This document shows positions 1-9,990 of a DNA stretch of 9,990 nt, one piece after another. The first letter of the stretch is position 1. The number at the start of each line of letters is the position of its first letter. The notes beneath the pieces are model-generated. The model was not told where the DNA came from and did not search any database. It saw only the letters and a program-made list of their open reading frames with translations. Origin of the DNA: Candidatus Vampirococcus lugosii (GTDB taxonomy: Bacteria > Patescibacteriota > Gracilibacteria > Absconditabacterales > Absconditicoccaceae); contig NZ_JAEDAM010000034.1 in assembly GCF_018420025.1 (NCBI RefSeq), forward strand, positions 1 to 9,990, in the 5' to 3' direction. Made by a program: the position numbers and the translations under genes.

Positions 1-122
1 TCTATTTATTTGCAACAGTTCATTATATTCACAAATTTCATTTTCTTCTATATAATTTATTATATTTTTTGCTGTTATATCTCATATTCAATTTATATTT
101 TTTAATTCTTCTTCTCATATTT
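1..122. repeat. Copy A of a 122-bp (or longer) perfect direct repeat. It may extend past the window edge.
   Basis: Positions 1-122 are base-for-base identical to 418-539 (offset 417 bp). Both copies encode IGEEELKNINGIGDITAKNIINYIEENEICEYNELLQINR on the minus strand. Confidence 0.9.
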
Positions 123-612
123 GCAACAAATTTATTTTATTTTCCTCTTCTTCCAAGTCTTCTATATCTTGTCCATTTTGTTCATCTTCTTCATTTTCCT
201 CTTCTTCCAATTCGTCTATATCCTGTCCATTTTGTTCATCTTCTTCATTTTCCTCTTCTTCCAATTCGTCTATATCCTGTCCATTTTGTTCATCTTCTTC
301 ATTTTCATCTTGTCCATATTGTCAATCTTCTTTGTCTTCATTTTTATCTTTTTCCTTTTCACAACTTGTATCAAGATATGTTATATTTTTTATCTCTTCC
401 AATATCTTTTGTCAAACTCTATTTATTTGCAACAGTTCATTATATTCACAAATTTCATTTTCTTCTATATAATTTATTATATTTTTTGCTGTTATATCTC
501 ATATTCAATTTATATTTTTTAATTCTTCTTCTCATATTTCTGAGATAGAAAACATTTGAGCAAATAAAAAAATCGGAAAAAATAATAATGTAAAAAATAA
601 ATAGATCTTCAT
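1..612 (-). CDS. comEA: ComEA-like secreted/membrane-anchored helix-hairpin-helix DNA-binding (competence) protein. The C-terminus lies beyond the left edge of the window.
   Basis: Minus-strand translation with TGA=Gly starts at the ATG at 612-610; an in-frame TAA lies just upstream at 618-616. Peptide: MKIYLFFTLLFFPIFLFAQMFSIS (hydrophobic signal/anchor), then EIGEEELKNINGIGDITAKNIINYIEENEICEYNELLQINRVGQKILEEIKN. This matches the ComEA pattern L..L.GIG...A..Ii.yRe..G.F....eL..v.GiG.k.le.ik. An acidic repeat region follows, then a second identical HhH module that runs to position 1. The ATG at 555-553 is an alternative start. Confidence 0.65.
139..300. repeat. In-frame 54-bp tandem repeat x3 encoding an acidic 18-aa unit.
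   Basis: Units 193-246 and 247-300 are identical (attttcctcttcttccaattcgtctatatcctgtccattttgttcatcttcttc). Unit 139-192 differs at 3 positions. A degenerate partial unit follows at 301-~340. The minus strand reads EEDEQNGQDIDELEEEEN per unit. Confidence 0.9.
418..539. repeat. Copy B of the 122-bp perfect direct repeat.
   Basis: Identical to 1-122. Identity ends at 540 (c) versus 123 (g). Confidence 0.9.
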
Positions 613-642
613 AATTTATAAAAAATAAAAAAATAAAAAAAT

Positions 643-666
643 AAATTATTAAATTATTAAATTATT
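643..666. repeat. 8-bp tandem repeat AAATTATT x3, preceded by phased A6-7T tracts (620-642), in the comEA/rsmA divergent intergenic region.
   Basis: Read directly from the sequence. Function is unknown and this could simply be low-complexity AT-rich DNA. Confidence 0.5.
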
Positions 667-805
667 AAAATACATAATTTTTATATAAATATACAAAATA
701 TTTTTTCAATACTTTTTTAAAAAATATCAGAAAAATATCTAAATATAAAGTTGATTAGTTTTGAAAAAAGATTATAAATAATTATTTATTTAAATAATAT
801 TAAAA

Positions 806-1564
806 ATGCCAAGTTATCTTTGACAAAACTTCCTAGAAGATATAAAATATAAAAAAATAATATTAGAAATAATAGAAAAATCAAAAAAAGAATTTGCTTG
901 GGAAAATCTAATTGAAATATGACCTTGAAAAGGTTCTATTAGTAAATATTTAGTTGATAAATATGAAAATATTACTTTTTTTGAAAAAGATGAAAATTTT
1001 TATAATATAATTAAAAATTTTAAAAAAGAAAAACAAAAAATAATAATATGAGATGTATTACAATCAAATCTTAACAATTTTAATAAAAATAAAACATTTA
1101 TATTTTGAAATATTCCATATTATATAACTTCCCCTATATTCAAAAAATTTTTTGTAGAAAATAATTTCATATGATGACTTATTTTAATACAAAAAGAAGT
1201 ATGAAAAAAAATTAAAAGCGATGCAAACAAAAAATCTTTTTTGCGATGGCTTTTGAATTATTGATATGAAATAAAATATATAGAAACTGTTCCTGCAAAA
1301 GCTTTCAATCCTATACCAAAAGTAGACAGTTGTCTAGTATATTTGTCAAAATTGTCAAATAAAAAAAATATAAATTTGGAAGAAGTTATAAATTTTTTGG
1401 ATATTGTAAATAGATATAAAAGAAAAACACTATGAAAAATATCAAATATAATAAATAAAAAATGAATCTATAAATATAATATACAATGAGAAATATCAAA
1501 AAAAAGAATTGAAGAACTTAATTGGGATGATATTAAATATATAATAGATTATAATAAAGAATAA
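806..1564 (+). CDS. rsmA: 16S rRNA (adenine1518/1519-N6)-dimethyltransferase RsmA/KsgA.
   Basis: 252 aa with TGA=Gly: MPSYLGQNFLEDI..., ENLIEIGPGKGSISKYL, FIFGNIPYYITSPIF, AFNPIPKVDSCLVYL. These are the KsgA hallmarks (GQNFL, EIGPGxG SAM motif, GNLPY, PKVDS). TGA at 821-823, 920-922 and 926-928 falls on the conserved Gly residues. The frame was checked codon by codon to the TAA at 1562-1564. Confidence 0.9.
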
Positions 1565-1644
1565 TTTATAAAACAATTTTATTGAATAATTTAAATAAAT
1601 AATTATAAACAATAGATATTTATTTTAATAAATTAAATTCATAA

Positions 1645-2355
1645 ATGAATAAAGCAAAAATTAGTTTGATAAATAAAATTTCATCAAAAACAAATGAAGA
1701 AGTTTTTTTGATGTTTAAATTGATATGAGATTTTGAATTTAAGACATGACAATTTGTTATGATAACAACAAATATTGATAACAAAAATATTAAAAGAGCA
1801 TATAGTATAGCAACAACAAATAAATTATTGCAAGATAAAAAACAAATTTGATTTTATGTAAAAAAAGCATCAGAAAATTGAGTTTCAAATTATTTTACTC
1901 AAATAATTAAAGAATGAGATGAATTAGAGATAACTTGACCATATTGACACTTCATAGACAATGAAGAAATAAAAAATTATTTATTAATTAGTGTATGAAG
2001 TTGAGTAGGACCTATATTATGAATATATGAAGAAATTATAAATGAAAAAAATAATTTCAATAAATTAGTAAATATTTTTTCAGAAAAAACAGAAAAAAAT
2101 ATTAATTGAATAATCCAAAAAACATTTAATTCAAATGATGAAAAAGTTAAAAATATATTATATTTATCTAGAGATAAAGTTGAATGATATAGAAATTGAC
2201 ATATACAAGATTGACTACAAGAAGCTATTGATTTTTTATGAACCAAAAAAATAAAAGTTTTTATTTGTGGTAAACCAGAAATGGTAGATGATGCAACTAA
2301 TATTTTATTGAGTAAATGAATAGAAAAAAATAATATAATTTCAGAAAAATATTAA
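1645..2355 (+). CDS. FAD/NAD(P)-binding oxidoreductase, ferredoxin-NADP+ reductase (FNR) family.
   Basis: 236 aa with TGA=Gly. Motifs: KTGQFVMI...KRAYSIA (RxYS FAD motif), EGDELEITGPYGHF, LLISVGSGVGPILGI (GxGxxP NAD(P) motif), KVFICGKPEMV (C-terminal CGxxxM). The specific enzyme cannot be assigned. Confidence 0.7.
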
Positions 2356-2376
2356 TTTTAAAAATAAAATAAATTT

Positions 2377-3061
2377 ATGTTATACATAATACCAACTCCT
2401 ATATGAAATATTCAAGATATTACATTAAGATGACTTAATTTATTAAAAGAACTTGAAATATTTTTATGTGAAGATACTAGAACTAGTAAAAAATTAATGA
2501 ATTTATATAATATTGATTATTCAAATAAACAATTTTTTAGTATTACAAGTTATACAAGTGAATGAAAAATAGAATTTTATAAAAAATTAATAGAGGAAAC
2601 TAATGTATGATTATTAAGCGATGCTGGAACACCATGATTATCAGATCCTTGAAAAAATATCATAAAAATAATTACAGAAAATAATATAAAATTTGAAACA
2701 TTGCCATGAGCTAGTGCAATAATTCCATGAGTTGTATCTAGTTGATTTGATACATCAAAATTTATATATTTATGATTTCTTCCCAAAAAAAAAATGAAGA
2801 CTAAAATATATTAAATATATAGTAAATAGTGAAATTCCTGTATTTATATATGAATCTGTATATAGAATAAAAAAATTAATAAATCAAATAAAAGAAGAAT
2901 GATTTGAAGGTAAAATTTCAATAAATAGAGAAATTAGTAAAATATATGAACAAAAAATAACAGACAATATAGACAAAATAATAGACAAATTAGACAATTG
3001 AGAAATAAAAATAAAAGGGGAGTTTGTTGTTTGATTTTTTAATACTAAATGAAAATGTTAA
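2377..3061 (+). CDS. rsmI: 16S rRNA (cytidine1402-2'-O)-methyltransferase RsmI, interrupted by a +1 frameshift in an A10 run (2785-2794).
   Basis: Frame 1 reads MLYIIPTPIGNIQDITLRGLNLLKE...VGLLSDAGTPGLSDPG...LPGASAIIPGVVSSGF...YLGFLPKKK, then 6 more codons to a TAA at 2812-2814. Frame 2 from 2795 reads GRLKYIKYIVNSEIPVFIYESVYRIKKLINQI...INREISKIYEQ...IKGEFVVGF, ending at the TAA at 3059-3061. Together these give a full-length RsmI (PTPIGN, SDAGTPxxSDPG, LPGxSA, YESPxR-like, RElTKxxE, KGEfv). Confidence 0.85.
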
Positions 3062-4176
3062 ATTTTATTTTCTTCGGTAGATTAACAAAAGAAAAATGAT
3101 TTGATTTAATATTATATATATTAGATAAATATAAAAATAATAAATATATAAATTTTTATATTTTTTGAAAATGAGATTTGGAAAAAAATTTAAAAAAAAT
3201 TAATGCTAAAAATATTAAATATTTATGATGGCAAAATATAGAAACTATAAATAAATATTTGGAAAAATCTCATTATACATTGATGCCATCCAAATTTTTG
3301 GAAACTTTTGGTTTATCTGCTTTGGAAAGTATAAATAAATGAGTTCCTGTAATTTGATATTGAAAGTGATGACTTAAACAATTTATAACACAAGAATTAG
3401 ATATAATTAAACAAATATGAAAAAATGATGAAGAAAAAATTGAAAACATAATAAATAAACTAATAAAAGAAATTGAAAATCAAAAAAATAATTGGGCATA
3501 TAGATCAAAAAAAGCAATTGAAAAATCAAATAATTATAAAAAAGAAACATCGTTAAGGGAGTTTGAAAATATAATTTGAAAAAATAAAAAAATACTTCTG
3601 ATAAGTGATTCTATTGAAAATATATGATGAATAGAATCATATATTATTAATACTAAAAAATTACGTAATAATAGTTGACACGAAGTAGACAGCTTTTGAC
3701 TAGGTGGCAAAATAGTAAAATATAGAAAAATATTGATGAGTTTAGTATGATTTAACATTTTTGCATATTGGAATTTAAAGAAAAAAATTAAACAATTTGA
3801 ACCTGATATTATATGGCTACATTCTGTAAGTAGATATTTATGATTTTTGCCTTTACTTAATTGTAAGTGAAAAAAAACTTTAATAATGTATCATGATTTA
3901 TGATATTTTCATCCATTTCCTTCAAAAGTTTATGAAGAAGAACAAATAATATGAAAAGTAAATTTAAAAAATTTTATAAAAATGTGAAAATCAAAAAATC
4001 CTATTGTAATATTTGCTATTTTTTTGAAACTAATTAATTTAAAATTAATAAATTTTGTGTTAAATAAAAAATGTAATTTTTTTATAATACCATCAGAATT
4101 TATGACAAAATATTTACAAAATTGATATTGAATAAAAAAAGAAAAAATAAAAATTTTGAAACATTTTGCAAAATAA
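3049..4176 (+). CDS. GT-B fold (GT4/group-1-like) glycosyltransferase with domain order swapped: donor-binding C-half first, N-half second.
   Basis: A single uninterrupted 375-aa ORF with TGA=Gly, checked line by line; a TAA at 3046-3048 lies immediately upstream. Residues 1-~115 read MKMLNFIFFGRLTKEKGFDLILYIL...FYIFGKGDLEKNL...IKYLGWQN...LMPSKFLETFGLSALESINKGVPVIGYGKGGLKQFI, the Glycos_transf_1 pattern (GRL..eKG, ivG.G, PS..E.FG...lEa...G.PV). A typical C-terminal tail follows. From codon ~180 (nt 3586) it reads KKILLISDSIENIGGIESYIINTKKLRNNSGHEV...FEPDIIWLHS...TLIMYHDLGYFHPFP...FFIIPSEFMTKYLQNGYGIKKEKIKILKHFAK, the pattern of a GT4 N-terminal domain. Confidence 0.8.
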
Positions 4177-4182
4177 AAAAAA

Positions 4183-4872
4183 TTAAATATGTCTAGCTAT
4201 TACTAATCACCAAACTTTAGTTTTATTAAATTTTTTTTCAATTAATGTAGACACCTGTCTAATTGTCGATCAAGTTGTTGTCACATCATCAATAATAATC
4301 AAAACTTTTCATTCCAAATCTAAATTTTCTTTTAATTTAAAAGCTCAATTAAGATTTTTAATTCTCTTTTCTCTATTTAATCTTGCTTGTTTTTGGGTAA
4401 TTTTTATTTTTTGAAAAACATCTAAAACTGGAATATTTAATTCTTGTCAAAAAGTTTTTGCTAATAAATAAGATTGATTAAATCATCTAACAAAATATTT
4501 ATTGTACCAATCTTGAGGAATATATGTAATAATTATCTCTTTATCAATTTCTTGTATTGCTTGATTAGATAAAAATATATATTTGATTTGATTTATTAAA
4601 TCTTTTGATAAAATTCTAGCTCATTTATATTTTAATGATTTAATAATTTTTTTAATAATTCAAGTATAATTAAATCATATTATTATTCATTGTAATGCTT
4701 CATTTTCATATTTACATTTTTGACAAATTTTGAAACTATTTGATTTTGACTTACAAATTGGACATATGTCAAAATGAACATTAATATTTTTTTTGCAAGT
4801 TTGACATATGTGTTGTCAAACTTGTCTACATCATAAACATGTTTTAGGGAAAATTATATCAAGTATATTCAT
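4183..4872 (-). CDS. comFC: ComF family protein (ComFC-type, phosphoribosyltransferase-like competence protein).
   Basis: 229 aa with TGA=Gly. Motifs: MNILDIIFPKTCLGCRQVGQHICQTCKKNI...CPICKSKS...CQKC (N-terminal Cys4 zinc finger), LKYKGARIL, ITYIPQDWYNKYFVRGFNQSYLLA, QKQARLNREKRIKNLNGAF, GKVLIIIDDVTTTGSTIRQV (PRTase loop; the TGA at 4272-4270 is the Gly of TTG), WGLVIARH. Confidence 0.9.
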
Positions 4873-4938
4873 ATGTATTTGATAAGTATAAAAAAATAAA
4901 TATATTATTATATTAAATTTATAATTTAAATTATAATT

Positions 4939-6052
4939 ATGAATATAGCTTTTGCAGGTGGAGGAACATGATGACATGTATTTCCTATAAAATCAATTAT
5001 TGATTATATAAAAAAAGATAATAAAATTACAAGTGAATTTGAAAATATTTATTGGTTTGGAGAAAAAAATTCTCTGGAAGAAAAAATTGCTAATGATATA
5101 AGTAATGTTAAATTTATAAAAATGATATCTTGAAAATTAAGAAGAGATAAATCTATAATTTCATTTGCAAAAAATATTATTGATTTATTTAAATTTTGAT
5201 ACTGAATTACAAAATCAATTTTTTTATTAAAAAAATATAAAATAGATGTAGTTTTTTGTAAATGATGATATGTTGCACTTCCTGTAGTTATTGCATCCAA
5301 AATATTAAGAAAAAAAGTTTTTGTACATGAATCAGATACTGTAGCATGATTGACAAATCGTATTGCCAACAAATTTTCAAATAAATCATATACTTGATTT
5401 CCCAAAAGTTTAAAATGATGACAACATATATGACAAATATTATCAGAAAATATATTAAACTTTAATAATTTAGACAAGTTTGACACAAGTTTGACAGGGG
5501 AGTTGGACAGTAATTTTAATAAAAAAACTAATATACTTATAGTTTGATGATCACAATGATCAAAAAACAATTTATGAAAATATTATTATCATAATAGAAA
5601 AAAATAAAGATATAAAAAAAAATTTTAATTTTTTTATAATACTTGGAAGTATTAATTCAAATTTAAGAAAAAAATTTGAAAATATTGACTGAAGTAAAAA
5701 TTTCATAAAAATATATGATTTCATAAATCAAAATCAAATGTGATATTTATGTAATATTTGTGATATATGAATTACTCGCGGATGAGCTACTAGTTTGGCA
5801 GAACAAAAATTTTTTGATATGAAATTAATAATAATACCATTACCTTATACTTGATGAAACCATCAATATTTTAATGCAAAATATTATGAAAATAAATTTA
5901 ATGATATACTTGTTGAACAAGACAAAAATATAAATAATAATTTATCAAAAAATTTATATAAACTTAAATTTTATAAAAAAAATAAATCAAATAAAAATAT
6001 AAATATATTGAACAAAAATATTGAACATATATTAAAAGATATAATATCATAA
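4939..6052 (+). CDS. murG: UDP-N-acetylglucosamine--N-acetylmuramyl-(pentapeptide) pyrophosphoryl-undecaprenol GlcNAc transferase MurG, interrupted by a +1 frameshift in an A6 run (5562-5567).
   Basis: Frame 1 reads MNIAFAGGGTGGHVFP (GGTGGH, with TGA TGA at 4969-4974), ...DVVFCKGGYVALPVVIASKIL...FVHESDTVAGLTNRIANKF...ILIVGGSQGSK, then runs to a TAA at 5605-5607. Frame 2 from ~5564 reads KTIYENIIIIIEKNKD...GYLCNICDIGITRGGATSLAEQKFF...IIIPLPYTGGNHQYFNAKYY..., ending at the TAA at 6050-6052. Together these give a full-length MurG. Confidence 0.9.
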
Positions 6053-6076
6053 TTACTTTATTAAGCAAATTATTTT

Positions 6077-6104
6077 TTGACAAATAAATATTATTGTATA
6101 TAAT
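6077..6104 (+). promoter_or_regulatory. Candidate sigma70-type promoter for the M23 peptidase gene: TTGACA, 16 nt spacer, TATAAT.
   Basis: ttgaca at 6077-6082 and tataat at 6099-6104, both perfect consensus hexamers, lie ~67 nt upstream of the ATG at 6171. The 14-mer ttattgtatataat containing the -10 box is tandemly duplicated (6091-6104 and 6105-6118). AT-rich DNA produces such boxes by chance, and nothing is known about this lineage's promoters. Confidence 0.4.
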
Positions 6105-6170
6105 TTATTGTATATAATAATTTAAAATAAAAATTGAAAATTTAATTAAAAAATATAAAATATAAATTTA

Positions 6171-8508
6171 ATGAAAAATATTAAAACAAAAAAAATTAAT
6201 AAAAATAACTGAGTAATATTTTACAAAAAAGTTTTAAGTTTATCTATTTTTTTTACTGCATGAATATATATATTCAATATTCCTTTATGAAATAATTTCT
6301 TGGCAAATATATCTGATTATTGACTTGGATTATTAACTAATCAAGAAATTTTGGAAAATGTTGATAATATAAAAGATAATAGTGTTGTATGGCCATTGAG
6401 ACAAGTTACAGATCGATCAAAAGTTGTAAATTATGAAAAAACAAAAAATACTGATTGGAAGGATTTGGAAAATAACTTAAAAACTCCTTTTCCTAATAAG
6501 TTTTCTGATACAATAGAAAAATATAAATTTGTATCACCATATAATATATGGGCAACAATAACAAATCCACTGGAAAGAGAAAAAGTAATATTTTATAAAA
6601 GATTAATAACAACATTGTGGACAACAAGTTATTCTTGTAGTTTAGAATCTTGTGATCGGTGGATTCCAAATACTTGAACTCATGCTTGAATAGATATTGT
6701 ATCAAGTACATGAACTCCTGTATACAACAGTATGAATTGAATTGTAATGAGAAAACAAAGTTGAAATACATGATTTGGAAATTATTTAGTTATTCTTACT
6801 AATTTTAATTGAGAATTATTAGCTACATTTTATGCACATTTTGATGATTTTCATTGAAATATTAAAGAATGAGATATTATAAAAAAAATGACAACAAATT
6901 TGATATATATGAAATACATGAAGTTCAAGTACTCCACATTTACATTTTCAAATAAATAGTCTAGGTCCTATACAAGATATAAAAAAATTTACAGTTGCAC
7001 AAAAAATGTGGGAGTGATGGAGTGGTAATGATAAAACAATTGAAACAGTTAGAAATTCAACACTAAATCCTATAAGTTTTGTTGAAAAAAATCTTGGAAC
7101 AGTATGAGATGATTTACAAAGACAAGATATAAATGTAAACACAAATAATATAAATGAAAAAAATAATGAAAATATAAAAAAAGAAAATAAAAATGAAAAT
7201 GAAGATTTACTTCAACAAATTACTAAACAATTGGAACAAGAATATTCAAATAATATTCAACAAAACAATAACAATAAAAATATTAAAGAAGTATTGGAAA
7301 TAATAGAAATATCTAATCCAAAAATTGATAATAAATTAACATTATGAGATAATATAAAATTTACAGTAAAAACAAAATGAGAAGATTGAAATATTACTAT
7401 AAGTAGTAATAATGATGTATTGAAACCATCACAATATACAATTACACCAAAAAAAGAAAAAAATGAATATGAAGTATTAGTTTCAGCTCAAAATATATGA
7501 AATTGAAGAGTTGTTTTTAGTGATTGAAAATCAAATAAAGATTATTATTTCAGTGTATATCAAGATGTTCAAGAAATATTTAGTTTATGAATAAACTGAC
7601 CTGATACTATTTTTAATACTGTTAAACAAAAATTTACTATATATCCTATAGATAAATTATGAAATACTGTAAATTATAATTTAGATTGAAATATTAATAT
7701 AAGTCTTTTGGATAGAGAAACTAATAAATCATATGATTTAATGAATCAAAAAATAAATAAACAAAATAATTTATTTAAATTTGAAATACAAGCACCAAAA
7801 ATTAGTAATTATAGATTGATAGTAAATTTTAAAGATGAAAAAAATAATTTATCTGCAAATAAAAATCTAGAAAGCGATATATTTATAGATTACAGTAAAA
7901 ATGATAAATACTGAAATAGTATGAAAGAATTAAATAAAAAAGGTATTATAAAATGATTTGAATGAAAAATGATGCCAAATAATAATATAATAAGAGCAGA
8001 AATAATAACAACATTAGTAAGATATAAATATTGAGATGATTTTGAAAGATTTAAAAATGAAATGAATAAATATATAGAAAAAAACTGAATTTTCTTTGAA
8101 GATATAAATCCAGAAGCTCGGTATTCTCCATATATTTTTATGGCATATCAAGATTGAGTTGTAAAATGAGCAGGTTGAACTCATGCTAATCCTACTATTC
8201 AAGCACAAAAAGATGAACTTATTGCTTTATATTCTAGATTTTTTAATATTTCAAAAAAAGATCAATTTCCATCTTTTATTGATGTAAATCAAGATGATTG
8301 GTTTGTAGATTATGCAAATGCAGCCAAAAATTATAACTTATTCCCTTTTGAAAATAAAAATAAATTTGAATGAAGTGATTTTGTAAGTAGAGAAAAAGCT
8401 TTTGAAAGTCTTTATAGATATATGAATGTTTGAGAAAAAATGCAACCCAAAATTAAAACTACAGAACAAAAATTGGAAGATGCAGTAAAAGCACTAATTA
8501 ATTTCTAA
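6171..8508 (+). CDS. Membrane-anchored M23 (LytM) metallopeptidase with an N/K/E-rich linker, two beta-rich repeat regions and three C-terminal SLH domains. Interrupted by a +1 frameshift in an A8 run (6881-6888).
   Basis: Frame 0 reads MKNIKTKKINKNNGVIFYKKVLSLSIFFTAGIYIF (TM anchor) ...NTGTHAGIDIVSSTGTPVYNSMNGIVMRKQSGNTGFGNYLVILTNFNGELLATFYAHFDDFHGNIKEGDIIKK, then runs to a TAG at 6957-6959. Frame 1 from 6889 reads GQQIGYIGNTGSSSTPHLHFQI, completing the M23 motifs HxxxD ... HxH. It stays open to the TAA at 8506-8508, checked line by line. The C-terminus (~7882-8430) has three SLH-like units: FIDYSKNDKYGNSMKELNKKGIIKGFEGKMMPNNNIIRAEIITTLVRY; FEDINPEA(CGG)YSPYIFMAYQDGVVKGAGGTHANPTIQAQKDELIALYSRF; FIDVNQDDWFVDYANAAKNYNLFPFENKNKFEGSDFVSREKAFESLYRY. 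Confidence 0.85.
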
Positions 8509-8528
8509 AAAATTAAAATATAAATACA

Positions 8529-9545
8529 TTATTTATAAAATAATTCTTTGATTGTTTTATAATTTTGTCATCATTTTTCTATTATATTATCTGGTAATAC
8601 TACAGGTTTTCATTTTTTATCAGGATTTTTTTTCCAAAATTCCATAACATAATCTCTAATCACTTGTTTATCCAAAGACTCTGGTTCTTGTCATTGTACA
8701 AATCATTCTATTTTCCAAAATCTTGAAGAATCTGGAGTTAAAATTTCATCTATCAAATATAATTTTCATTTTGAATCTAATCAAAATTCAAATTTAGTAT
8801 CTCAAATCACAACTCAATTTTCATTAGCTAATTTATTAGCTTTTTCATAAATATTAATACTTATTTTTTTTATTTGTTCTGATAATTCTGTTGCATCTAT
8901 ATTATCAAATCATTCTTTCAATAAAAAATTATATAAATAATCTTCCATATTATCATAATTTATATTTATATCTCATTCATCAGATTTAGTAGATGGAGTA
9001 AAAATAGCTTTATTAAATTTACTACATTTTTGTAATCATTTTCAAATAAATTCAGAAGTACTTAATTTTCAAGTTTGTGAATCATATCATTTTAATGCCG
9101 AACCATATAAATATCATCTTACTATAGCTTCTATAGGTAGAGGATTAAGTTTTTTTACAATTTCAGTTCTATTTTTTAATTTATCTGGAAAATCACTAGG
9201 TCGTTCAGGATCAGCAATCATATGTGTATCCAAAAAATCAATAGTCCCAAACCAAAAACGAGATATTTGTGTAAGTGCTTCTCACTTACTTGGTATTAAT
9301 CAATAATGCACTACATCATGAGTTGATATTCTATCTGTTGCTATCATTATCAATAAATTTTTATCATCAGGATGTTGATATGTCTCTCTAACTTTTCATG
9401 AATGTAAATGAGTATATCTATCTGGCAACTTAAGACTATCTGTAATACAATCAGATAAACAAGAAGATAAATCAAATTTATTATTTTCAAAATTAGATTT
9501 TTTTATATCTTTTATCGAGTTTTCTAAATTTTCAATTTTTTTCAT
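8529..9545 (-). CDS. purC: Phosphoribosylaminoimidazole-succinocarboxamide (SAICAR) synthase PurC, long form.
   Basis: 338 aa with TGA=Gly. Motifs: ...LPDRYTHLHSGKVRETYQHPDDKNLLIMIATDRISTHDVV...IPSKGEALTQISRFWF...LPIEAIVRGYLYGSALKGY...AIFTPSTKSDEGD...[35 protein letters not shown]...ESLDKQVIRDY. All PurC signature blocks are present in order. The start is uncertain. The ATG at 9545 leaves ~49 aa before GKVRE. An in-frame TTG at ~9425-9423 would give a canonical short N-terminus. The frame also stays open upstream to 9818. Confidence 0.88.
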
Positions 9546-9903
9546 AATATAAAATATTATTATATAAATATATATATCTATATTAGATATATTTTTTTTA
9601 ATTAAATCAATATGTAATATATATTCAACTACTTCTAACCAGGCATACATTATATTTTTTAGCTTATATCACATATAATCTTCTTTCCTTAATTCTAATA
9701 TCATTTCTTTAACCTGAGCTCATACTATTTCCAATCATACCATAGCTAATCATATTGATGATAGTAATATATTATAATAATTATTTAGTCTTTCAACTTC
9801 ACTTCTTAAATGTATTTTCTATAAATTATATTCTTATTTTAAATATTTATATGTTTCTTCTATTAACCTCATCTTTGTAAACAAAAAATAATTTATTTTA
9901 TAC

Positions 9904-9990
9904 ATGTACTCAAAAAAAGAACATAAAAATCAGAAACTAACAGAAAAGAATCGTAAACATATTCGAAAACTATATTGTGATCAATGGTCT
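9904..9990 (+). CDS. N-terminal 29 codons of an unidentified protein. Possibly the HTH of an IS30-family transposase; truncated by the window edge.
   Basis: MYSKKEHKNQKLTEKNRKHIRKLYCDQWS loosely fits the IS30 N-terminal pattern hLT..eR..I..l.....S. The fragment is only 29 aa, so this is a guess. Confidence 0.25.
   Translation, partial: MYSKKEHKNQKLTEKNRKHIRKLYCDQWS

Follow-up and report, generated by a model that had tools for sequence, protein, structure and literature searches.

How can a glycosyltransferase work if its two halves are encoded in the opposite order? This question is raised by a gene at positions 3049-4176 of a 9,990-nucleotide stretch of DNA from Candidatus Vampirococcus lugosii (contig NZ_JAEDAM010000034.1, positions 1 to 9,990, forward strand; hereafter the window). 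Glycosyltransferases have two main folds, one of which is GT-B, with catalysis that depends on hinge motion between two Rossmann domains. The original prediction, made from the letters of the window without database searches, described the gene product as a GT-B enzyme of glycosyltransferase family 4 (GT4) whose donor-binding domain comes before its acceptor-binding domain. From domain scans, homologue searches and structure models we conclude that the gene very probably codes for a real circularly permuted member of the GT4 family (GT-B fold, retaining-type) that evolution has conserved.

Reading the gene depends on the genetic code. The window is ~18% GC, and translation with table 11 yields almost no long open reading frames (ORFs), while accepting only TAA and TAG as stops yields a dense gene array. 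Under table 11 the gene is interrupted by 23 in-frame TGA codons, which sit where relatives have Gly, for example in GRLxxEKG, FGxG and GVPVIG, and the window was therefore read with table 25 (TGA = Gly). With this code 3049-4176 on the plus strand is open throughout as a single ORF of 375 aa followed by a TAA stop, as had been claimed. Scans of the window for tRNAs, Rfam families and tandem repeats returned nothing relevant to this ORF.

Pfam scans recognize two near-complete domains in an order reversed relative to canonical GT4 enzymes. Glycos_transf_1, the donor or 'C' domain, matches aa 6-155 (profile positions 18-171 of 172; E=1.4e-18; bit score 67.5, curated cutoff 26.4). The acceptor or 'N' domain, Glyco_transf_4, follows at aa 192-370 (profile positions 1-162 of 170; E=2.9e-12; bit score 47.4, curated cutoff 28.5), which is the outcome that the original prediction expected of such a scan. 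Where a canonical GT4 chain runs from acceptor domain through linker and donor domain to a C-terminal crossover helix, the window protein runs donor, helices, acceptor. The C-terminal portions (~200-470) of the NCBIfam GlgA, BshA, MshA and TuaC models match its first 175 residues. In a comparison of a family profile with PDB sequences, residues 253-426 of Pyrococcus abyssi glycogen synthase pair with profile positions 4-175, and residues 17-46 of the same enzyme pair, weakly, with positions 193-222.

Translation across the junction gives ...REFENII-G177-K-N-KKILLISD, with G177 encoded by the TGA at nt 3577-3579, and confirms the GKN that had been noted between the C-type tail and the N-domain. 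The cut in the canonical chain also falls where it had been placed, in the inter-domain linker, just after the last acceptor-domain strand and just before the first donor-domain strand. Homologues have a variable junction linker of 2-8 residues. One of them (L052) has an insertion of ~40 aa exactly at the C-to-N junction, which shows that the new linker is a permissive surface site.

The same domain order recurs across relatives. Among the first 69 database hits, 62 aligned in the same order over the whole query (94-100% coverage, identities as low as 29%), and a second search raised the permuted family to 84 protein clusters. Full-length homologues remain collinear to identities of about 27%. 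When one genome per GTDB species was scanned, 145 were seen to encode a relative, and the counts out of 80 given here refer to 80 loci from these 145 genomes. In most of the 80, the best tblastn segment spans essentially the whole query in the same order; their genomes are labelled Absconditabacterales or SR1 (including the human oral taxon HOT-345), Gracilibacteria, 'Peribacteria' or Patescibacteria. An exhaustive hidden Markov model (HMM) search of 1.84 billion representatives (a 50%-identity library) returned 392 proteins at E<=1e-30, and nearly all of the best 150 of these 392 align as one collinear match of 354-450 aa. The suggested search for orthologues with the same order has thus succeeded, with over 80 protein clusters and no fewer than 145 species genomes sharing it. 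On the strength of these sequence comparisons, the reversed order is to be read as a conserved natural rewiring across well over a hundred species, all from a single group of very small bacteria that have not been cultured, and not as an error.

Both halves retain conserved residues. In 59 aligned members, R11, E15, K16, P80, S81, E85, F87, L89 and A91 are invariant in the donor half, and D187, E196, N236, R262, H282, K327, P348, S349 and H372 in the acceptor half. The donor motif across members is PSxFLETFGLSALE, an EX7E motif that corresponds to E85-x7-E93 in the window protein, with the second Glu (E93) usually conserved in the family. The EX7E and the phosphate-binding Arg/Lys expected of a GT4 enzyme with the GT-B fold are therefore both conserved. 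We take the Arg and Lys of GRLTKEKG to be donor-site phosphate binders, and the R11/K16 pair together with the EX7E glutamates presumably forms the nucleotide-sugar site, as in PimA, MshA and BshA. On the other side, we assume that the glycine loop and the strand-loop histidine are the acceptor-side domain features of GT4; by position, YHDLGYFHPFPS would be the counterpart of the 'T.HG.D' strand-loop in other GT4 enzymes.

A circular permutant should have unpermuted homologues, and the searches recovered them as a canonical-order sister subfamily. Four members were among the first hits and searching with one of them added 30 more, giving about 34 clusters (P0051/53/54/65 and P0103-P0132) of 406-425 aa, all N then C, from low-GC, TGA-recoded organisms. 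Their identity to the window protein is 39% in the N half and 33% in the C half, and they have in common with the permuted family the motifs KILxVSDYxxxIGGIExY, PDxIWFHSxSR, YHDLGYFxxF, VPSxFM, INFIFFGRL and PSLFLETFGLSA. Outside the subfamily, they match the permuted proteins best (E about 1e-40 to 1e-30), and generic GT4 proteins match only at about E 1e-7. The sister proteins end in '...LVKDFII' and start with 'MTKILIVSD'; joined head to tail, these termini reproduce the window junction '...FENII-GKN-KKILLISD', as predicted by an origin through duplication and fusion. Their inter-domain linker of about 15 aa, 'LPNFILKEKIGTRKDILQDK-INFIFFGRL', spans the exact point where permuted proteins end ('LKHFAK' and stop) and begin ('MKMLNFIFFGRL'). 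The two groups also differ beyond domain order: where the acceptor domain ends, the sister subfamily has N (LPNF), like generic GT4 with its NG(V/I)D, and the permuted family has the invariant H372; the sister subfamily also carries a 25-30-aa donor-domain insertion that is absent from the main permuted clade.

All permuted members found come from TGA-recoded (code 25) lineages, and an in-frame TGA lies within the permuted gene in 77 of the 80 loci. One of the three loci without it (L006/L070, JAUPLX010000002.1) is 54% GC, and at nt 4465-5280 of this locus a WecG/TagA gene is broken in the NCBI table-11 annotation at codon 134, an in-frame TGA. With TGA as Gly the same region gives one 271-aa protein with a complete domain and the TGA inside the Pfam-matched part, so that the GC-rich 'Patescibacteria group bacterium' appears to be another user of code 25 and to be mis-annotated. 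Public databases handle the recoding poorly throughout both groups (P0001-P0005, P0051-P0054, P0103-P0132 and others). Copies of the permuted family are mostly code-4 style translations with Trp at each TGA (up to 28 W per protein), as are all copies of the canonical-order sister family, and other copies are cut at TGA under code 11 into fragments of 190-300 aa. Such translations weaken Pfam detection, leaving Glycos_transf_1 merely 'faint' in the sister family, and the public annotation of permuted-family proteins is limited to 'glycosyltransferase' or 'hypothetical protein'.

For structure modeling we used a correctly translated homologue (P0006, 41% identical to the window protein) with the family alignment as input; the 92%-identical P0001 was not used as a target, being a code-4 translation with 23 Gly-to-Trp errors. 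The structure prediction that had been suggested gave a compact two-domain AlphaFold2 model with a predicted local distance difference test score (pLDDT) of 94.9 and a predicted template modeling score (pTM) of 0.90, values that imply a defined inter-domain geometry for the modeled chain. When compared to the PDB using Foldseek, this model matched over 170-200 columns only (TMq 0.30-0.40), and always to GT4/GT5 donor domains: the 'PGS' glycogen-synthase domain, which is a G protein-coupled receptor fusion partner, GtfA, MshA and sucrose-phosphate synthase (SPS). None of the listed Foldseek hits was a solved structure aligning over both halves. In contrast, a control model of the canonical-order relative P0132 (pLDDT 88.1, pTM 0.85) matched SPS, GlgA, BshA and PimA over 420-500 columns (TMq 0.57-0.64). 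Since this less confident model matches full length, the one-domain matches of the permuted model reflect connectivity rather than divergence. In both models the acceptor-type half has the same string of secondary-structure elements, E H E H H E H E H H E H E, placed second in P0006 and first in P0132. Both BLASTP of the halves against canonical relatives and the secondary-structure order reveal the cyclic rotation of elements that defines a circular permutant.

The arrangement we propose retains the working parts of the enzyme and changes how they are strung together. The chain opens at the first donor-domain strand and continues through the helices that normally end GT4 enzymes, then passes through the 3-residue linker into strand 1 of the acceptor domain, and ends at the point where a canonical enzyme starts its inter-domain linker. 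The two Rossmann halves are still expected to meet face to face and to enclose the usual active site between them, but they would be tied by one covalent crossing, the ex-C-terminal helix, not two.

Several points weigh against this reading. The structure model is that of a homologue and not of the window protein itself, synteny is partial, with TrmD as the most frequent neighbour (27/80 loci), no N-C-N-C or partial intermediate was found, with none longer than 450 aa in the best 150 of the 392 HMM matches, and the window allele has S168 where 58 of 58 relatives have W/R/F, S188 where 58 of 58 have F/Y and R206 where 55 of 58 have L. Compared to two 99.9%-identical contigs (L001 and L002), the window has only five substitutions in about 7 kb (nt 3548, 3551, 3556, 3611 and 3665), all of them inside the permuted gene, within 118 bp around the junction, and nonsynonymous. 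These changes might impair the window copy or might be base errors. Decay or inactivity of the gene in this strain, within a family that is otherwise functional, would fit these five changes, three of which replace residues conserved in 55-58 of 58 relatives, as well as the frameshifts in the neighbouring rsmI, murG and M23 peptidase genes of the window. We nevertheless consider it unlikely, as the ORF is intact, its catalytic motifs are untouched, the sister contigs keep the conserved residues, and the differences could be sequencing or consensus errors. Errors on a larger scale, in which two normal tandem GT4 genes were collapsed or mis-joined into a C-half plus an N-half, are hardly conceivable. 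The three homopolymer indels relative to contig L001 do mark an imperfect base-level quality, but many independent projects yielded the same order, in the 84 clusters and no fewer than 145 species genomes, and this conservation already effectively refutes an assembly artefact. Moreover, the same ORF is present in two independent Logan assemblies (SRR13241708 and SRR13241709) that agree with the window at 99.9% identity, and ORF 3049-4176 is flanked by an rsmI-type methyltransferase gene ending at 3061 and a comF-like phosphoribosyltransferase gene (minus strand, 4183-4872), with no orphan glycosyltransferase halves beside it. A junction codon of TGA would also allow translation to stop at 3577, producing donor and acceptor proteins that pair non-covalently like Alg13/Alg14 with reversed gene order, and split GT-B enzymes do exist (Alg13/Alg14 and EpsE/EpsF; PMC8993221). 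This is very improbable given that 23 in-frame TGAs at conserved Gly positions make TGA a sense codon, that the N-type half has no start codon (no plausible ATG, GTG or TTG was found at its opening), and that no split members occur among the full-length hits. Across 75 loci, the junction codon specifies Gly in about 40% and is TGA in about a dozen, matching background TGA use. Because the junction codon is non-TGA in most homologues and a stop in none of the full-length ones, the product is one polypeptide.

For the origin of the permutation, we infer a canonical-order ancestor that would have been duplicated in tandem and fused in frame before losing its outer halves. The original prediction had named this route, and the joined sister termini agree with it, while the tandem-duplicate intermediate that should accompany it was not found and the route stays inferred for that reason. 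A gene split whose halves later re-fused in inverted order, the route proposed for amoebozoan Alg13-14, has a precedent in another GT-B lineage (PMC8993221) and accommodates the lack of a double-length protein among the best 150 of 392 matches. However, database searches found no split genes of the family, the only C-only or N-only candidates being hits of 190-300 aa that look like TGA-truncated gene calls, and the junction near-seamlessly joins canonical C-terminus to N-terminus, an outcome that duplication and fusion gives directly, though re-fusion of adjacent genes could fit. We therefore hold fission and re-fusion to be possible and clearly less probable than not. Neighbour-joining (NJ) trees with 200 bootstraps, built from de-permuted alignments (whole, N-only and C-only) with a generic GT4 outgroup, did not settle the direction of the change. 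Permuted and canonical-order relatives form a clade (65% bootstrap) in which the canonical-order relatives are monophyletic (90%) and the permuted group is monophyletic in the best tree with a bootstrap of only 30%. The median donor-domain spacer is 43 aa in canonical-order relatives (all with the 25-30-aa insertion), 35 aa in a basal permuted clade (22 tips), and 15 aa in both the main permuted clade (59 tips, including the window) and the generic GT4 outgroup, indicating either that the insertion was ancestral and then lost, or that topology changed more than once. The insertion common to canonical-order relatives and basal permuted clade, the 30% bootstrap, and the much lower diversity of the canonical-order subfamily (mean distance 0.57 vs 1.35) could mean that this subfamily derives from a permuted ancestor by a second permutation, or that permutation occurred twice. 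We find this rather unlikely, since the best NJ tree has both groups reciprocally monophyletic, H372 is invariant in permuted members where canonical-order relatives keep N like generic GT4, and indels are commoner than permutations. Somewhat more doubtful still is a history in which topology changed repeatedly, through two permutations or a reversion to canonical order. On a still more speculative version, TGA reassignment would have fused tandem genes, as a TGA stop recoded to Gly would read gene 1 of a tandem pair through into gene 2. Such an origin by readthrough is conceivable because all permuted members come from recoded lineages, and it was set aside for want of specific support, the TGA at the junction in about a dozen of 75 loci being background use.

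How the permuted family relates to known systems can be stated more closely. Like canonical GT4 enzymes (PimA, BshA, MshA, archaeal GlgA and SPS), the permuted protein has both Pfam domains and retains GRLxxxKG, EX7E, the GG loop and the acceptor strand-loop His, and the donor half of the permuted model superposes on solved GT4/GT5 C-domains. Unlike them, it has its halves reversed, lacks the inter-domain linker including the NG(V/I)D...F segment, and joins its ex-C-terminal helix to acceptor strand 1 via 2-8 residues. Because domains and motifs are those of GT4 and the chain order is not canonical, we therefore file the protein as a permuted variant of GT4.

The closest precedent found is the reversed GT-B halves reported in Alg13-Alg14 fusions 'with the reverse domain order' from Entamoeba histolytica and Dictyostelium discoideum, which are described as a re-fusion of previously split genes (PMC8993221, citing Bickel 2005 and Averbeck 2007). 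As in these fusions, the donor (C-type) half of the permuted protein precedes the acceptor (N-type) half in one polypeptide, effectively a circular permutation. The Alg13-Alg14 proteins, however, are eukaryotic and inverting, belong to a MurG-like lineage and consist of Glyco_tran_28_C plus Alg14, whereas the permuted family is bacterial GT4, is conserved across a class-level clade with no split stage seen, and has an unsplit canonical sister family. The Pfam hits of the window protein are to GT4 models only, with no Glyco_tran_28_C or Alg14 homology, and the resemblance is a topological analogy, not membership. A second parallel comes from GH70 glucansucrases, natural circular permutants relative to GH13 with a permuted TIM barrel (PMC11046441). 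Both are family-wide conserved rotations of a common fold with catalytic motifs kept, but GH70 is a TIM-barrel hydrolase/transglycosylase cut inside one domain and permuted GT4 has two whole Rossmann domains swapped. A full-text literature search for permuted GT-B or GT4 enzymes found no permuted GT4 described and only GH70 and Alg13-14 as relevant cases, the other hits using the word in unrelated senses. In the literature searched, the suggestion that permuted GT-B enzymes are an undescribed class holds for GT4, but GT-B at large does have a precedent. Precedents exist for the fold, for the chemistry and for reversed GT-B halves as an idea, and the protein is not categorically new.

Table 1. 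Features of the permuted gene in the window (nt positions) and recurrent neighbours of its homologues.
Feature	Position	Strand	Basis or detail
Permuted GT4 ORF	3049..4176	+	375 aa + TAA, code 25, 23 TGA=Gly
Donor-binding C-type Rossmann domain with canonical C-terminal tail helices (aa 1-176)	3049..3576	+	Pfam, PDB profile, secondary structure of homologue model
Glycos_transf_1 match, aa 6-155	3064-3513	+	Pfam
GRLTKEKG motif, aa 10-17	3076..3099	+	R11, E15, K16 invariant in 59 members
PSKFLETFGLSALE, EX7E donor motif, aa 80-93	3286..3327	+	P80, S81, E85, F87, L89, A91 invariant
Five window-specific nonsynonymous substitutions	3548..3665	+	Versus near-identical contigs and relatives
Junction G177-K178-N179, ex-C-terminal helix to ex-N-terminus	3577..3585	+	G177 codon TGA
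Acceptor-binding N-type Rossmann domain, aa 180-375	3586..4173	+	Pfam, homologue alignment, homologue model
Glyco_transf_4 match, aa 192-370	3622-4158	+	Pfam
GGIE glycine loop of N-type domain, aa 193-196	3625..3636	+	E196 invariant
YHDLGYFHPFPS, family-specific motif, aa 281-292	3889..3924	+	H282 invariant, D283 at least 90% conserved
NPIVIFAIFLKLINLKLINFVLNK, most hydrophobic segment, lysine-flanked, aa 317-340	3997..4068	+	Long helix in homologue model
LKHF, new C-terminus, aa 370-373	4156..4167	+	H372 invariant in permuted members
Wzy_C (O-antigen ligase/polymerase-like) membrane protein	immediately upstream		20/80 loci
WecG/TagA-family transferase	immediately downstream		9/80 loci
FtsW/RodA	nearby		11/80 loci
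Large PMT_2-like membrane protein	nearby		9/80 loci
TrmD	nearby, commonest neighbour		27/80 loci

Gene neighbourhoods offer a lead on the role of the permuted enzyme. In the window, murG and the M23 peptidase gene lie within 2 kb of the permuted gene, and a Wzx-type flippase is also present at one GC-rich locus. The Wzy_C, WecG/TagA, FtsW and MurG neighbours suggest a role in cell-envelope glycan assembly, and the hydrophobic helix at aa 317-340, long in the homologue model, may contact the membrane. We propose, at a moderate level of confidence, that the enzyme is cytoplasmic, associates with the membrane and extends a lipid-linked glycan of the cell envelope. The enzyme would be active and would use a nucleotide sugar to extend this membrane-associated glycan, which is probably polyprenyl-phosphate-linked.

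Other features of the window were noted alongside the permuted gene. Four of its five window-specific substitutions are toward G or C, and we have no explanation for their clustering. An extra A at each of 2785, 5562 and 6881 (A10, A6 and A8 in the window versus A9, A5 and A7 in L001) frameshifts the window copies of rsmI, murG and an M23-peptidase gene with S-layer-homology-like (SLH) repeats, which are intact in L001 (227, 370 and 778 aa); L002 has the first two extra As (2785 and 5562), the two within its range, and L001 has none. These variants may be homopolymer consensus errors, population variants, or slippage-tolerated frameshifts in a very AT-rich genome. The M23 gene (6171-8508, plus strand) encodes the peptidase domain, a long Asn/Lys-rich middle and, by eye, C-terminal SLH-like repeats, a layout that suggests a cell-wall-anchored murein hydrolase encoded beside murG. 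At the other end of the window, an ORF at 1-615 (minus strand) runs off the window start and encodes two helix-hairpin-helix ComEA-like modules (INGIGDITAKNIINYIEENEICEYNELLQINR) that flank an acidic 18-aa repeat (EEENEEDEQNGQDIDELE). This repeat is encoded by a 54-bp tandem repeat at 139-311 (3.2 copies, 96% identity), and the opposite strand of the 1-615 region has spurious Leu/Phe-rich table-11 ORFs.

A widespread permuted family that evidently works and stands beside a close canonical-order sister is a natural experiment on how much hinge and linker a GT-B enzyme needs, on domain closure with a single covalent crossing, and on how circular permutations arise and become fixed. The family is also a warning for the annotation of recoded genomes: annotation that is aware of domain order and sequential structure aligners catch only half of a permuted protein, and code-11 or code-4 gene calls garble it with breaks at TGA or W for G. 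These findings should interest those who study glycosyltransferase structural biology and the evolution of protein topology. For the organisms themselves, which are episymbionts, the permuted family may mark a cell-envelope glycan pathway specific to Gracilibacteria/Absconditabacteria, including human oral SR1.

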